DNA from: Candidatus Binatia bacterium
GTDB taxonomy: Bacteria > Desulfobacterota > Binatia > HRBIN30
DNA length: 64,000 nt
NCBI GenBank assembly: GCA_937925685.1
Contig: CALAMI010000008.1
Location: 77,518 to 141,517 of the forward strand
Direction of reading: 5' to 3'
Part shown: one piece after another, positions 24,001 through 30,000 of the stretch
How positions within the stretch are numbered: the first letter of the stretch is position 1
How the letters are laid out: every line of letters begins with the position of its first letter
Position numbers: made by a program

Positions 24001-27000
24001 TTGAGAGCTGGTTACATTCGTCCGCTGGTGTTTCTCGGCGATGGGGAAATGGGCTTGGCTGCCGTGCAAAATCCAGTGCGGCTGGCCATCGCCGCCTGGC
24101 CTTGGGGAGCGTACTTGGGCGATGAAGGCATCCGGCGCGGGGTGCGGTTAAAAACGTCATCCTTCCAACGGATGCATGTCAACACCTTTATGACCAAGGC
24201 GAAAGCGGTGGGTAACTATGTGAACTCCATCCTTGCAGCCGTCGAGGCGAGAAAGGCGGGGTACGACGAAGCCATGATGCTCGATACTGACGGTTTCGTG
24301 GCTGAGTGCAGCGGAGAAAACCTTTTCATTGTGCGTAGAGGCGTGGTGAAAACCCCCCCGCTCACGTCCGTTCTGGAAGGGATCACACGTGCCTCGGTGC
24401 TCAGCTTGCTCGAATCCATGTCGATTTCCTGGGTGGAGGAACGGTTCACTCGCGACGAAGCATACATCGCCGACGAAGTGTTCATGACCGGGACAGCGGC
24501 CGAAGTGACCCCAGTTCGCGAAATCGACGGGCGAGTGATCGGTGCAGGAGTACCGGGACCAATTACGCGGGCGCTTCAAGAGCGTTTCACTGCCGTCGTA
24601 CGGGGGGAAGTGGAAAAGTACCGCCACTGGCTTACAGCGGTGACCTGAGCCGTAAACACTTTTGGTGCAATTTGAATTGACAGAGTTGGATGATCCGATT
24701 ATAAGCCCGCTGCCTGGATGTGTGTGGTGCGGAGGAAGAGCAAAGCGCCGTGTGGCGGGCCTTGGCGACGGGGGACGCGACGGAGGAACGGGGAGTGAAG
24801 GGTAAAGTTAGCCTGAGGGTGGTTCGATGCGCCATCGTCACCTTGGTGGCCTCTGTCAGCCTGATGCCCGCACTGCGTGCTGAGGTGACTGTAGAACGCG
24901 GCAGCTCGATCCTGATTTTCCCCAAAGTGATTTCGGACCCCGACGGATTGCTGACCCGCGGGTTCCCCGTGGAGACGATCATCCAAATCTCGAATACGTC
25001 GAACTCGTTGGCATTTGCCCATTGCTTTTACGTCAACGCCGCGCCGCTGGATCCAAGGCAACCACCAGGTCCTTTTAACCCTCCGCAATGGCAAGAGGTC
25101 GACTTTGACATTGTGTTGACCAAGCAACAGCCGACTTACTGGGTGGTCGGTCAAGGGCGCAGGGTTGATCCGACTGACCCTCAGTGCAGCCGGGTGCCGG
25201 CGGTGCTGAATTGCCCCAACGCGGGATTCGATCCTGGAGCTATTCCAGCGGTGCCGCCAAATTTCCAAGGCCAGCTCGTTTGCATTGAGGTTGACGCTGC
25301 GGGCGCTCCCTTGAACGGGAACAGACTCAAAGGTGAAGCGACTTTGATCACACCCGCTGCGACCACAGTTCAAGGTGTGACGATGCGCCTAGGTGAAACA
25401 AGCAAGTACAATGCAGTGGGGATCGTGGGATTGAACACGGATACCAATTCCAACGATGGCGACTTGAGACTTTGCCTTGGAGGGGGGCCTCGACCCGGTT
25501 GTCCCAGTGGGGCGGAGTACAATGGCTGCCCAGATGCGGTGATCGTGAATCACTTCGCGGAGCGGGCTACAATGCCAGCATTGCCCCCAGGGGACATTGG
25601 CAATTCGCGCGTGGATACAGAGGTTACCCTTGTGCCGTGTACCCAGGACTTCGAGAACCAGCTTCCGGGCAGCGTTGTGGTGCAGTTTCGCGTGACCAAC
25701 GAGTTCGAAAACCTCTTTTCAGCTAGTACGACGGTTACGTGTTGGTCGACTTTCCGCCTCGGGGACGCGGCTCGCGTTTTCGACATCAGTTTCCTCGGCA
25801 CTCGTTTTGCCCAGACTCGGATGTTTCCCGGTGGCCCTGAGCAACCTGGTTTTGTCGGGGTTTCCGAGGAGTTCTACAACGACGGAAGAGGAGTGCTTTC
25901 CAGGGCCGCACTCAACCTGCATGTCGAAGGGGAGCGTCCGGGGGGAGATATGATCACCATTCCAGAGGTGGCACCATGAACCGACGCCGCTGTCTTATAA
26001 CCGTAGTGGGCGTGTTTTGGGCTGTCGGTTCTGCGTGGGCCCAGCAGGTCGGTGCTGACCGGGCCGCTGCGATGCTGGTCTTCCCGAAAGTGGTGGTCGA
26101 TACCGCTAATAGTGCTGGCCGTGGTCGGTTGGATACGTTGATCCGCATCAGTAACACGCTGAACAAGCCAATCCGCATGCAGTGTTTTTGGGTCAATGCA
26201 AACGGCCACTGCTTCAACGCGCCCGGGATCATTTGCGACCCTACGCTGTTGCCTCGAGACAATCGTTGCCCGGCAAACTCTGTGTGCGTCCCCGGTTGGC
26301 AGGAGACGGATTTTATCGTGCAGTTAACCGCGCGGCAGCCGGTAGCGTGGCTTGCGTCCATGGGGGCAACGCTGTGTAGCGATATGGCCGATCCAAACTT
26401 GCCCTGTTTTCCGATCGGTGGTGCCGGCAGGCCGAGTCCGACAAACAATCTCGAGAGTCGAGTTCCTGCAGTGCAGGAGGATCCTTTTGTTGGAGAGCTA
26501 AAGTGCATTGCGGTGGATCAAAACGACGTGCCCATCGAGGACAACGGCCTTAAGGGGGAGGCCTTAATCGTTCGCTCGGATGTGCAAATCGGTTCGAACT
26601 TCTTTGACGTGCGCGCCTACAATGCAGTCGGGATTCCAGCTCTTGCGGGCAGAAACAACCGTGACAACGTGTTGGTGCTGGGCGGAAATGGCGCCGAGTA
26701 CGCGGGCTGCCCAAACGTATTGATCTTGGACCACTTTTTCGACGGGGCCGAAGACCCCGTTACGCGGCAAAGCATCAGCACGACGCTCACGTTGGTTCCG
26801 TGCACCGAGGATTTTCTTACGCAACGGCCGACGGCGATGCCGATTCAATTCCTGGTGTTCAACGAATTTGAGCAGCGCTTCTCGACTAGCTTCCGTGACT
26901 TTAATTGTTTCCGGGAATTTCGTCTTTCGGAAATCGACACGCGGGTGCCGACGTTTTCGATCTTCCACGCCGGGGTTTCTGGCACGCTTACGGGCCAGAC

Positions 27001-30000
27001 GCGCATCCGAGGGGTCGTGACGAACGATCGTACGCGGGGGCAGACAGTTCTTGGCGTTGCTGAGGAAATTCGTTCCGGTGGCGGCAGCGCCGCATTCCAG
27101 TTGCACATGCAAGGCGCGCGTCCGCAAAGCGACTTTGTGTACCTGCCTTTTCAGTGAGAACGCAATGAAAATCGGCTCTTTTAGCTTGACAAGGTGGAAC
27201 CACGCAGATATAAGGCCGTCACTCAATCGAGGGGTTCGCCCTGGCGAACACGGTGCGGCGTGATCGAAAGGAGGAGGGTAATGCGTAGGCAGCGAGGGCT
27301 AGTTGGGCTCATGGGACTCGCGGCGTTGGTCGGTTGGGGTGTTAATGCCCGATTGGCTGAAGCCCGCGTCACTACGGAGCAGAGCGCATCAATTCTGGTG
27401 TTTCCGAAAGTGATTGCCACCGCGACCCGGGACACGGTAATCCAAATCACGAACACCTCGAATAACATGCGGCATGCGCACTGCTTTTACGTGGATGGTT
27501 CGCCGGTTAATCCGGAACTTCCGGTTGGTCCGCTCAATCCTCCCCGATGGGTTGAGACAGACTTCGATATTTGGCTCACGCGGCAACAACCTACCCACTG
27601 GGTGGTGTCGACCGGTCGGTGGGACGATCCCACAGACGACTCTTGCCGCGCCGTTGCGTGTAACCCCGTTACAAGCGGCGGAAATAATGGTACTGCAGAT
27701 TGCTGTGACGCTGGTTTCGACCCTGGTCGAATTCCGCCGATGGGGCCAAATTTCACTGGGGAGCTAAAATGCATCGAGGTGGATGCGTCGGGCTTCCCGG
27801 TTCCTGGAAACTCCTTGAAAGGGGAGGCGACCTTGGTGGACCGCGGGCAAGCGACCTTTGACGTGTCGAAGTACAACGCCATTGGCTTGAAGGGCTTTGA
27901 CACGAACAACATGGACGGAGTGCTTTGTTTAGGTGGGGGGGTGAATGCGTCTTGTCCATCGGGGCCGGAGTACGAGGCGTGCCCGCAGACGTGGATGTTG
28001 GATACCCCCTCCGTGAATGCCCCACATCCAGTTATTGAGGACGCTACTACGGGCGTGGAGCTCACGGTGGTTCCGTGTTCCCAGAATTTCGAGACCCAGG
28101 AGCCAACCTCCGTTACACTTCAGTTCGCCATTACAAACGAGTTTGAGCAAACCTTCTCGGCCTCTACGACCATTTCTTGCTGGGCAACTCAGGCGCTGGA
28201 CGACATTAACCCGATTTTCGACGTGACGGCTGTGGGTGGTAACGTGTTGCTGACCCGAGTGCGCGCGGCCGCGGCCACTCCCCGAGGTATTATGGCAGTA
28301 GTCGAGGAAACAGTGTCGCATAGAGCGCTTGGCCAAGCCCGCGTGGCGCACAATCCTCACAACAGCTTTGCCGATCAGTCGGGCCAGGACTTAATCATCA
28401 TTCCGGCTGACCAGATTCAGGCCCCGTAAGGGTGCGGTGCAATGGGTAGAGAAGGGCGACGTCCTAGGAATGGGGAAAGGAGAATGACGATGCGACAGGT
28501 GCGATGGGTTGGCTGGACAGTGGCTGTCGCCGCGGCGCTAAGTGTTGGGCCGAGGCCAGCCGCACGAGCGGATATCGCATCCGATAAGCCCGCGGCGGTC
28601 GTGGTGTATCCGAAGGTCCAGGTGACAGGCGCAGCGGGGGTTAATACCACGATTCGTTTGGCGAACACCAACACAACGAATCCAATTCATGTCCACTGTT
28701 ATTACATCAACGCGAGCTCCTACTGCGTCGGCGGTTTTAACGCCGGCCAAAATTGTACTCTCTCACCCACGGTGTGTACGGGCGGGGGGGTGTGTTTGCC
28801 GAGTTGGCAGGAGACTGATTTTCGGGTTGTACTCACGGCGGGCCAGCCAATTGAGTGGGTAGCGTCGGACGGACTAGCTGACGCGAACTTGCCGCTGCCG
28901 CGCGGTGTTTGCGTTCGCAATCCAACCCGGCAGTGTGGTTCCGATGCGGATTGTAACCCATTCCCCGGCGGGACTTGTACGCAGAGCAACGCTGGTACGC
29001 GGATTCCGCCAGTCCCAGACGACCCATTCATTGGCGAGCTACGCTGCATCGCGATCGATCCCCAGGGCAACCCAATTCCCCGCAACGAGCTCAAGGGGGA
29101 AGGGCAGATTGTTACGGTGACGGCCGCTGGCCCGGTGCCGGGCGGTAGCATCGACGTTGCCGGTTACAACGCGATCGGGATTCAAGCAACCGGGGCTTCT
29201 GACGGCGTCGCGAATCAGCTCACCCTCGGGCCAGGTCGGAGTGGCGAGTACAACGGGTGCCCGAACTACTTAATTGTCGATCATTTCTTCGATGGGGCAG
29301 CGAACCCGGTGCCCGGTACCGCTGCGACAATTTCGACTAACCTGGTGCTGGTGCCCTGTTCGACGGACTACCTACGGCAGATCCCTGGCTTGGCCGTGGC
29401 GCAGTATCTTGTGTTTAACGAGTTCGAACAGAGGTTTTCGACCAGTAGGGCGGTACGCTGCTACCAGGACATGCCTCTCAGCCGTATCGATACCGCGAAT
29501 AGCCTTCGTTCGATTTGGAACGTAAACGTGGCTGGGACTTTAACCGGTCAAACCCGCGTGAACCCGATTGGGGTGCCATCGAGCAACCCACCGTCGATTC
29601 CTAGTGGGTTGTTAGGGATTGCGCTGGAAACGCATACCGGGTTAGTTACCAAGAGGGCTGCTTTCAACGTGCACATGGCGGGCGATCGAGACCAGCCCGA
29701 CGTGATGATTATCCCGTAGGGTCGAAGTTGGTGATTTGGAGAGTGGGCCGACCGTGGGGCAGCGCGGTCGGCCCTTTTTTTTCAAGTGGATTCCGGGAGA
29801 TTACGAAGTACGAAGTCGATGACGTCGGCTTCGAGACGGGTGCCATGGAGGCGATTGTATTCCTGAATCCCAGTTGGGCTCGTGACGTTGACTTCGGTGA
29901 GGTAATCTCCGATCACATCGATGCCGACGAAATAGAGGCCGTCGGCCCGTAGGCGCGGCGCCAGGGTAGCGACAATCTCGTGGTCGCGGGCAGTGAGCTC

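Follow-up and report, generated by a model that had tools for sequence, protein, structure and literature searches.

Deeply conserved TTGACA-N17-TATAAG sites as probable sigma70-family promoters of a four-gene secreted-protein cluster in Candidatus Binatia

The window analysed here, a 64-kb stretch (58% G+C) from a Candidatus Binatia bacterium, contains a cluster of four paralogous genes, A1, B1, A2 and B2 (A and B types about 37% identical), which encode secreted proteins of an uncharacterised family, and two short intergenic sites, P1 and P2, one ahead of each A-B pair, which probably act as sigma70-family promoters. P1 (TTGACA-GAGTTGGATGATCCGAT-TATAAG, 24677-24705) and P2 (TTGACA-AGGTGGAACCACGCAGA-TATAAG, 27186-27214) both lie on the plus strand, outside coding sequence and oriented toward the A genes. 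A first-pass annotation had reported two copies with identical hexamers and a 17-nucleotide (nt) spacer; both are present, and they are exactly the two matches to TTGACA-N17-TATAAG found on either strand of the window, while none of 100 dinucleotide-preserving shuffles of the window contained even one. The first base of P1 falls 29 nt past the stop codon of the preceding aminotransferase gene (24646-24648), that of P2 29 nt past the end of the B1 stop codon (27155-27157), and the distance from the end of the -10 hexamer to the start codon is 90 nt for A1 and 67 nt for A2. In both sites the -35 hexamer matches TTGACA at 6/6 positions and TATAAG agrees with TATAAT at five of six, with T-12 and A-11 present. 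The P1 and P2 regions, aligned pairwise, resemble each other only in the hexamers and a few bases next to them, and a repeat or mobile-element origin was rejected on account of this dissimilarity.

Strong evidence for the function of P1 and P2 comes from their conservation, which was followed through a comparison set of 870 kb comprising the window and 75 related loci, with one genome per species and both strands searched. Exact TTGACA-N17/18-TATAAG sites occur 63 times in this set, all of them on the gene strand and immediately ahead of a gene of the A1 or A2 type, with none elsewhere, an exclusivity that is biased by the centring of the sample on A genes. The spacer measures 17 nt in 53 of these sites and 18 nt in the remaining ten, which come from one subclade. 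Ahead of nearly every A1- or A2-type gene the best promoter-like match agrees at 12/12 positions with TTGACA-N17(18)-TATAAG, whereas ahead of B genes it is 6-9/12, the background level. TTGACA hexamers number 235 in the whole set, and most of those with TA at 16-18 nt belong to A-family genes; upstream of A1 orthologues the -35 hexamer is TTGACA and rarely TTGACT. In a footprint of 27 distinct A1-type promoters and 36 A2-type promoters, information content comes close to its maximum at both hexamers and at a T-tract 5' of the -35 hexamer (consensus aTTTtnn before TTGACA in the A1 type), and it falls to near zero in the A1 spacer and the farther flanks. The T-tract, at about -38 to -43, is kept in both classes as a candidate UP contact, and the A2-type promoters have an additional A-tract at about -52 to -58. 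At the level of sequence, this is a classic promoter footprint, and the exact retention of the motif in dozens of distantly related Binatia makes it almost certain that the sites have a function. The earlier proposal of a sigma70-type promoter before each A-B pair gains strong support from hexamers that stay invariant upstream of A1 and A2 orthologues while spacers and flanks vary. The T-rich stretch abutting the -35 hexamer of P1 may provide a proximal UP-element-like contact.

A tblastn search with all four proteins of the window found the order A1-B1-A2-B2 in many of the 75 loci, at protein identities as low as about 45%, while elsewhere these genomes have loci with only one A-B pair, of a more distant kind. 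Because the order of the four genes is common to the clade, the duplication must be ancient. The hexamers are invariant though the proteins of related loci are only 45-60% identical, and since neutral DNA would be randomised at such divergence, they are held by selection and not by recent copying, so that a recent duplication can be excluded, on these sequence comparisons, as the source of their identity. The suggestion that the promoter was duplicated together with the gene pair thus stays plausible, but the identity of the hexamers reflects selection acting since an old event.

Three further observations were made among the related loci. Upstream of A2 in L004, L007, L011 and L037 (for example L007, 5870-5915) three TTGAC motifs stand in a row, as TTTTGAC-TTGACA-AC-TTTTGAC; the arrangement is limited to one subclade, is absent from the window's own clade, and could represent -35 elements that overlap or a binding site made of direct repeats. 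The single-pair paralogue loci (L046-L075; for example L057 5867, L062 3149, L070 5824) have conserved promoter classes of their own, one of the form TTGACA-N12-TTTTTGAG-TATGTA-N6-CACTTCCGCGG...GGAAAGGAGGAGGGCAATGCGAA, and others of the forms TTGACA-N11-TTCGAG-TAACTG-GAGGCAGCTTTC and TTGACA...GTTACAG-TATCTG/TATCAG. Clusters of A and B genes with their promoters also occur on contigs L009, L037, L050 (DATKMS01), L024, L029, L067 and L006/L033/L058 (JBBILD01), whose metagenome-assembled genomes are labelled Margulisiibacteriota, Gemmatimonadota, Desulfosarcina, Terriglobales and Myxococcales; these are probably mis-binned or mislabelled Binatia sequences.

Table 1. Coordinates of the promoters, genes and associated features of the A-B cluster in the window.
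Feature	Position	Strand	Basis or remark
A/T-rich stretch AATTTGAA abutting the P1 -35 hexamer	24669..24676	+	T-tract conserved there in A1-type promoters
P1 -35 hexamer, TTGACA	24677..24682	+	Sequence; orthologue footprint
P1 spacer, 17 nt, sequence unconstrained	24683..24699	+	Low information across orthologues
P1 -10 hexamer, TATAAG	24700..24705	+	Sequence; orthologue footprint
Predicted A1 leader, from the presumed start site (G, 7 nt past the -10 hexamer) to GTG	24712..24794	+	Sequence
A1, secreted Cys-rich protein, 394 amino acids, uncharacterised family	24795 (GTG)..25979	+	
B1, paralogue of A (37% identity)	25976..27157	+	
A-tract, GC core and T-tract TGAAAATCGGCTCTTTTAGC upstream of P2	27166..27185	+	Alignment, footprint
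P2 -35 hexamer, TTGACA	27186..27191	+	Sequence; orthologue footprint
P2 spacer, 17 nt, ending in semi-conserved C-N-G-A	27192..27208	+	Alignment, footprint
P2 -10 hexamer, TATAAG	27209..27214	+	Sequence; orthologue footprint
Conserved discriminator/start region GCCGnCACTT, then A2 leader of about 60 nt	27215..27280	+	Presumed +1 = A at 27221
Nearly invariant nucleotide block GGCGTGATCGAAAGGAGGAGGGTAATGCGTAGGCAGCGAGGGCTAGTTGGGCTC	27257..27312	+	Alignment of leaders
A2, 382 amino acids, 47% identical to A1	27281..28429	+	
B2, 411 amino acids, 46% identical to B1	28484..29719	+	
Intrinsic terminator, 12-bp GC-rich stem and T8, after B2	29745..29782	+	

The four genes (Table 1) are flanked upstream by glnE and a class IV aminotransferase gene (ilvE-like) and downstream, on the opposite strand, by gshB, rsmE and prmA. 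All four deduced proteins start with a signal peptide, after which comes a conserved (I/L)(L/V)VFPKV strand, and contain 10-13 cysteines, and the predicted model of A2 consists of two beta-sandwich domains. No Pfam or NCBIfam family and no PDB sequence match was found for A1, B1, A2 or B2; the 1,979 homologues of A2 detected at E <= 0.001 are all unnamed or 'hypothetical', and those with a taxon label are assigned to Candidatus Binatia or, under an older label, to Deltaproteobacteria. A and B are probably abundant secreted proteins that act together. The ATG of B1 overlaps the stop codon of A1 (ATGA), which suggests translational coupling, while B2 starts 55 nt past the A2 stop with its own Shine-Dalgarno sequence, GGAAAGGAGA, and has no promoter-like site ahead of it. 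The automatic gene call places the start of A1 at GTG 24720 (419 amino acids), which gives a non-signal N-terminus and is separated by only 8 nt from the point where transcription is predicted to begin; GTG 24795 is preferred because a GGAGGA Shine-Dalgarno sequence (24782-24787) stands ahead of it and a proper signal peptide results, so that the public annotation probably includes 25 codons too many.

No terminator was found in the window between the B1 stop codon and P2 (28 nt, 27158-27185), as the first-pass annotation had stated, and the related loci have no consistent one either: the corresponding interval holds an A-tract, a GC core and a T-tract running into the -35 hexamer, typically AAAAAAGGGCCTTTTGAC directly followed by TTGACA, without a stable hairpin, and such hairpins as can be drawn between B1 and A2 are weak, inconsistent and built on the promoter's own T-tract. 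In its composition this stretch looks like an UP element and not like a terminator. After B2, by contrast, a hairpin with a T-run occupies the same position in 19 of 23 related clusters, where its sequence differs from one cluster to the next without recognisable relationship. The conserved architecture, as read from these loci, is P1-A1-B1-P2-A2-B2-terminator, and because a terminator is lacking between B1 and A2 and a single strong one follows B2, one long transcript with an internal promoter is its natural reading. Folding of the B1-A2 intergenic region and of the P1 and P2 leaders was unremarkable, with z-scores from -0.6 to +0.6.

The region where translation of A2 would begin is conserved to a degree that sets it apart from the A1 leader. 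In 37 distinct A2 leader sequences (A2 upstream regions of L001-L071) the block GGCGTGATCGAAAGGAGGAGGGTAATGCGTAGGCAGCGAGGGC is almost invariant despite protein identity of only 45-60%. In the window the nearly invariant stretch (27257-27312) takes in the extended Shine-Dalgarno sequence (27270-27277), the start codon at 27281 and about ten codons from there. Where two sequences encode the same amino acid, they use different codons in 16% of cases at codons 2-12 versus 46% at conserved codons farther in, and the rare codons AGG, CGA and CTA are kept in the first part of A2. Searches against Rfam, with gathering thresholds for the complete window and with E <= 10 for the interval 24600-27400, gave no relevant match. 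RNAalifold on the 37 A2 leaders returned -5 kcal/mol with 0 compensatory pairs and no consensus structure, and folding energies were no better than those of shuffles (z-scores of -0.6 for the A1 leader and 0.1 for the A2 leader). Folds predicted for individual A2 orthologues share no common hairpin and leave the Shine-Dalgarno sequence about 70% unpaired. A riboswitch or thermometer in the A2 leader was dropped from consideration, in view of the z-scores, the lack of a common hairpin and the mostly open Shine-Dalgarno sequence, and a CGCC...GGCG stem that seemed possible by eye was rejected as inconsistent across sequences. The simplest reading of the block is selection for an extended Shine-Dalgarno sequence within an open, purine-rich initiation region that would allow very efficient translation; a binding site for a protein or small RNA would be a less likely alternative.

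For an independent view of promoter sequences in this lineage, the promoters of rpsU (ribosomal protein S21) were collected from seven Binatia genomes, the window included (reference loci L010 10486, L012 12116, L015 11337, L042 12023, L001, L002 and L004); in several loci rpsU lies a few kb downstream of the A-B cluster. They follow the pattern TTGAnn-N16-18-TAnnnT, with TTGACA, TTGATT or TTGAAC as -35 hexamer and TAGTGT, TAAAGT, TAGAGT, TAAGCT, TACCGT or TAGGTT as -10 hexamer. The copy in the window reads TTGATT-N17-TACCGT (33202-33230), ahead of a gene at about 33295-33495; the open reading frame of 628 amino acids after it (33878-35764) may be dnaG. Since the rpsU promoters have this form, a canonical TTGACA/TAnnnT recognition system operates in Binatia, judging by promoter sequence, and a housekeeping consensus of another kind, which the first-pass annotation had named as a reason to abandon its proposal, did not emerge from the seven genomes.

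We regard P1 and P2, with a probability of about 80%, as functional sigma70-family promoters of the housekeeping type that drive the four-gene unit. Several observations weigh against this assignment. The last base of the -10 hexamer (-7) is G in both P1 and P2, in place of the consensus T, and a built-in consensus promoter scan lists neither site, because it demands T as the sixth -10 base. For well-studied sigma70 factors, T at -7 provides one of the two contacts that matter most in the -10 element. Among about 75 A1 and A2 promoters the base at -7 is G in about 66, A in 5, C or another base in a few, and never T; the position looks selected for a non-consensus base, which the logic of a strong promoter does not explain. 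A crude motif search of the window found no sigma factor gene, the primary sigma factor included. One reason for the avoidance of T may be that a promoter with 12/12 consensus bases escapes poorly; another may be recognition by a specialised sigma factor. TATAAG is, on the other hand, the -10 hexamer of several Escherichia coli promoters used by the RpoD holoenzyme, for example those of uspC, hmp, nadB and gadW (PMC3946193), and because some documented RpoD promoters do without it, T at -7 is typical and not obligatory (PMC3946193).

Other promoters in the set bear on the same base. The ilvE promoter in the window reads TTGACT-N17-TAGCGA (23680-23708), and in one subclade (L031 1886, L040 1809, L043 1875, L045 1895) the ilvE promoters read TTGACA-N17-TAGCTG/TAACTG, with TTGACA-N17-TAGCTG ahead of ilvE at four loci. 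The ilvE ATG of that subclade lies only about 10 nt past the -10 hexamer, which would make the mRNA nearly leaderless. A general enrichment of TATAAG as a -10 hexamer was rejected, as outside the A promoters the 870 kb hold 21 TATAAG versus 24 TATAAT. A third TATAAG in the window (36715-36720) precedes the RNase P RNA gene (36731-37088) by 11 nt, in the place expected of a -10 hexamer, with a poor -35 match at 17 nt (TGGTCG).

These patterns lead to an alternative in which the promoters are real and are read by a specialised sigma70-family factor of group 2 or 3 that prefers TATAAG, with G at -7, so that the A-B loci would form a dedicated regulon whose expression depends on conditions and is not constitutive. 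The consistent absence of T from -7 in about 75 promoters speaks for such a factor, as do the restriction of every exact motif in 870 kb to A-family genes and the occurrence of TTGACA with other non-T -10 ends (TATGTA, TAACTG, TATCTG) at the single-pair paralogue loci; the restriction, however, carries the sampling bias mentioned above. The -35 hexamer, the spacer and five of six -10 bases are those of the housekeeping consensus, no sigma or anti-sigma gene adjoins the clusters, and ilvE, an ordinary biosynthetic gene, likewise has TTGACA/T-N17-TAGCTG or TAGCGA, so that a non-T end is not specific to A genes. On balance we consider a specialised factor, although it is the main rival explanation, unlikely. 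Extracytoplasmic function (group 4) sigma factors, whose consensus combines a GGAAC-like -35 with a CGT-like -10 element, were rejected, given sites that read TTGACA and TATAAG.

It is also conceivable that the P2 block is mainly a cis-regulatory element for A2-B2, an RNA leader or a site for a protein or small RNA, of which the hexamers are only a part. The nearly invariant A2 leader, Shine-Dalgarno sequence and first ~10 codons throughout the clade fit this idea, together with the suppressed synonymous change (0.16 vs 0.46) and the retained rare codons AGG, CGA and CTA, but an RNA element receives no support from Rfam even at E <= 10, nor from RNAalifold (-5 kcal/mol without compensatory pairs) or z-scores of about 0, and folds predicted for different orthologues disagree, with the Shine-Dalgarno sequence left open. 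P1, moreover, shares the hexamers without having a conserved leader, which indicates that they are constrained independently of it, and a predominantly cis-regulatory role appears very unlikely. Finally, the sites could owe their resemblance to chance or be a non-functional relic of the duplication. Neither the shuffles, with 0/100 giving a match, nor the 63 exact instances at the same place relative to A genes, with spacers diverged and proteins 45-60% identical, are compatible with this, and the conservation pattern effectively refutes it.

Under the preferred interpretation of P1 and P2 as housekeeping-type promoters, RNA polymerase holoenzyme would recognise the TTGACA -35 and TATAAG -10 hexamers over the 17-nt spacer, possibly assisted by the conserved T-rich stretch upstream of the -35 hexamer, and the predicted start sites fall about 7 nt past the -10 hexamers, near 24712 and 27221. 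Because there is no terminator in between, transcripts from P1 probably read through into A2-B2, and P2 would supply further transcripts of that pair; strong Shine-Dalgarno sequences and the unstructured, purine-rich initiation region of A2 would add a high rate of translation. From these sequences we infer that the primary sigma factor is used, where transcription starts, how strong the promoters are, that transcripts read through and that the proteins are abundant, and the terms 'strong' and 'constitutive', which the first-pass annotation had applied, would describe P1 and P2 in the same predictive sense.

In comparison with the canonical sigma70 (RpoD/sigma A) promoter TTGACA-N17-TATAAT, P1 and P2 share the perfect -35 hexamer, the optimal 17-nt spacer and five of six -10 positions, and are likewise intergenic, correctly oriented and placed ahead of a start codon with a strong Shine-Dalgarno sequence; they differ in the last -10 base, G, conserved as non-T, and their recognition by the primary sigma factor is presumed. 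The macromolecular synthesis operon of E. coli, rpsU-dnaG-rpoD, has an internal promoter, a single distal terminator and additive transcription of its distal part. The A-B unit similarly has a second promoter between cistrons and no terminator before it, but its two halves are paralogous gene pairs and its two promoters have the same sequence. High-expression envelope cassettes, such as ompA and S-layer genes, combine a strong promoter with a long leader and a strong Shine-Dalgarno sequence. The A-B unit has in common with these a near-consensus promoter, a leader of 60-85 nt, an extended Shine-Dalgarno sequence and secreted products, and differs in leaders that, as far as folding can tell, have no demonstrable stabilising 5' hairpin. 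The E. coli TATAAG promoters are not known to be conserved in the way that P1 and P2 are. Those of uspC, hmp, nadB and gadW have the same -10 hexamer and a TTGACA-like -35 hexamer at 16-17 nt (Shimada et al., 2014; PMC3946193). Their -35 hexamers are imperfect (PMC3946193), whereas in the class of P1 and P2 11/12 positions are fixed across a class-level clade. P1 and P2 are an ordinary kind of element whose conservation is unusually deep and exact.

The interest of these promoters lies in that depth and exactness, in the consistent non-T base at -7 and in the ultraconserved initiation region of A2. A bolder and in our opinion rather improbable proposal would join the A-family promoters and the A2 leader and codons into a Binatia-wide dedicated module, governed by a specialised sigma factor or a leader-binding regulator, that makes an abundant heteromeric A/B complex of the envelope or a secreted one. 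We know of no cultured representative of Binatia (Binatota) and of no mapped promoters in the group, and a full-text literature search that included metatranscriptomes returned nothing on Binatia or Binatota promoters and nothing specific on TATAAG. P1 and P2, together with the rpsU and ilvE promoters, give a first picture, drawn from sequence comparison, of the promoter grammar of this phylum, which so far consists of a strong TTGACA -35 hexamer, a T-tract upstream of it, a 17-nt spacer and a TAnnnN -10 hexamer. P2 with its leader is a candidate expression cassette for genetic tools in Binatia. The A/B family itself, with about 2,000 homologues, multi-copy, secreted, Cys-rich and uncharacterised, is probably highly expressed and functionally important, and would be a sensible target for proteomics and structural work.

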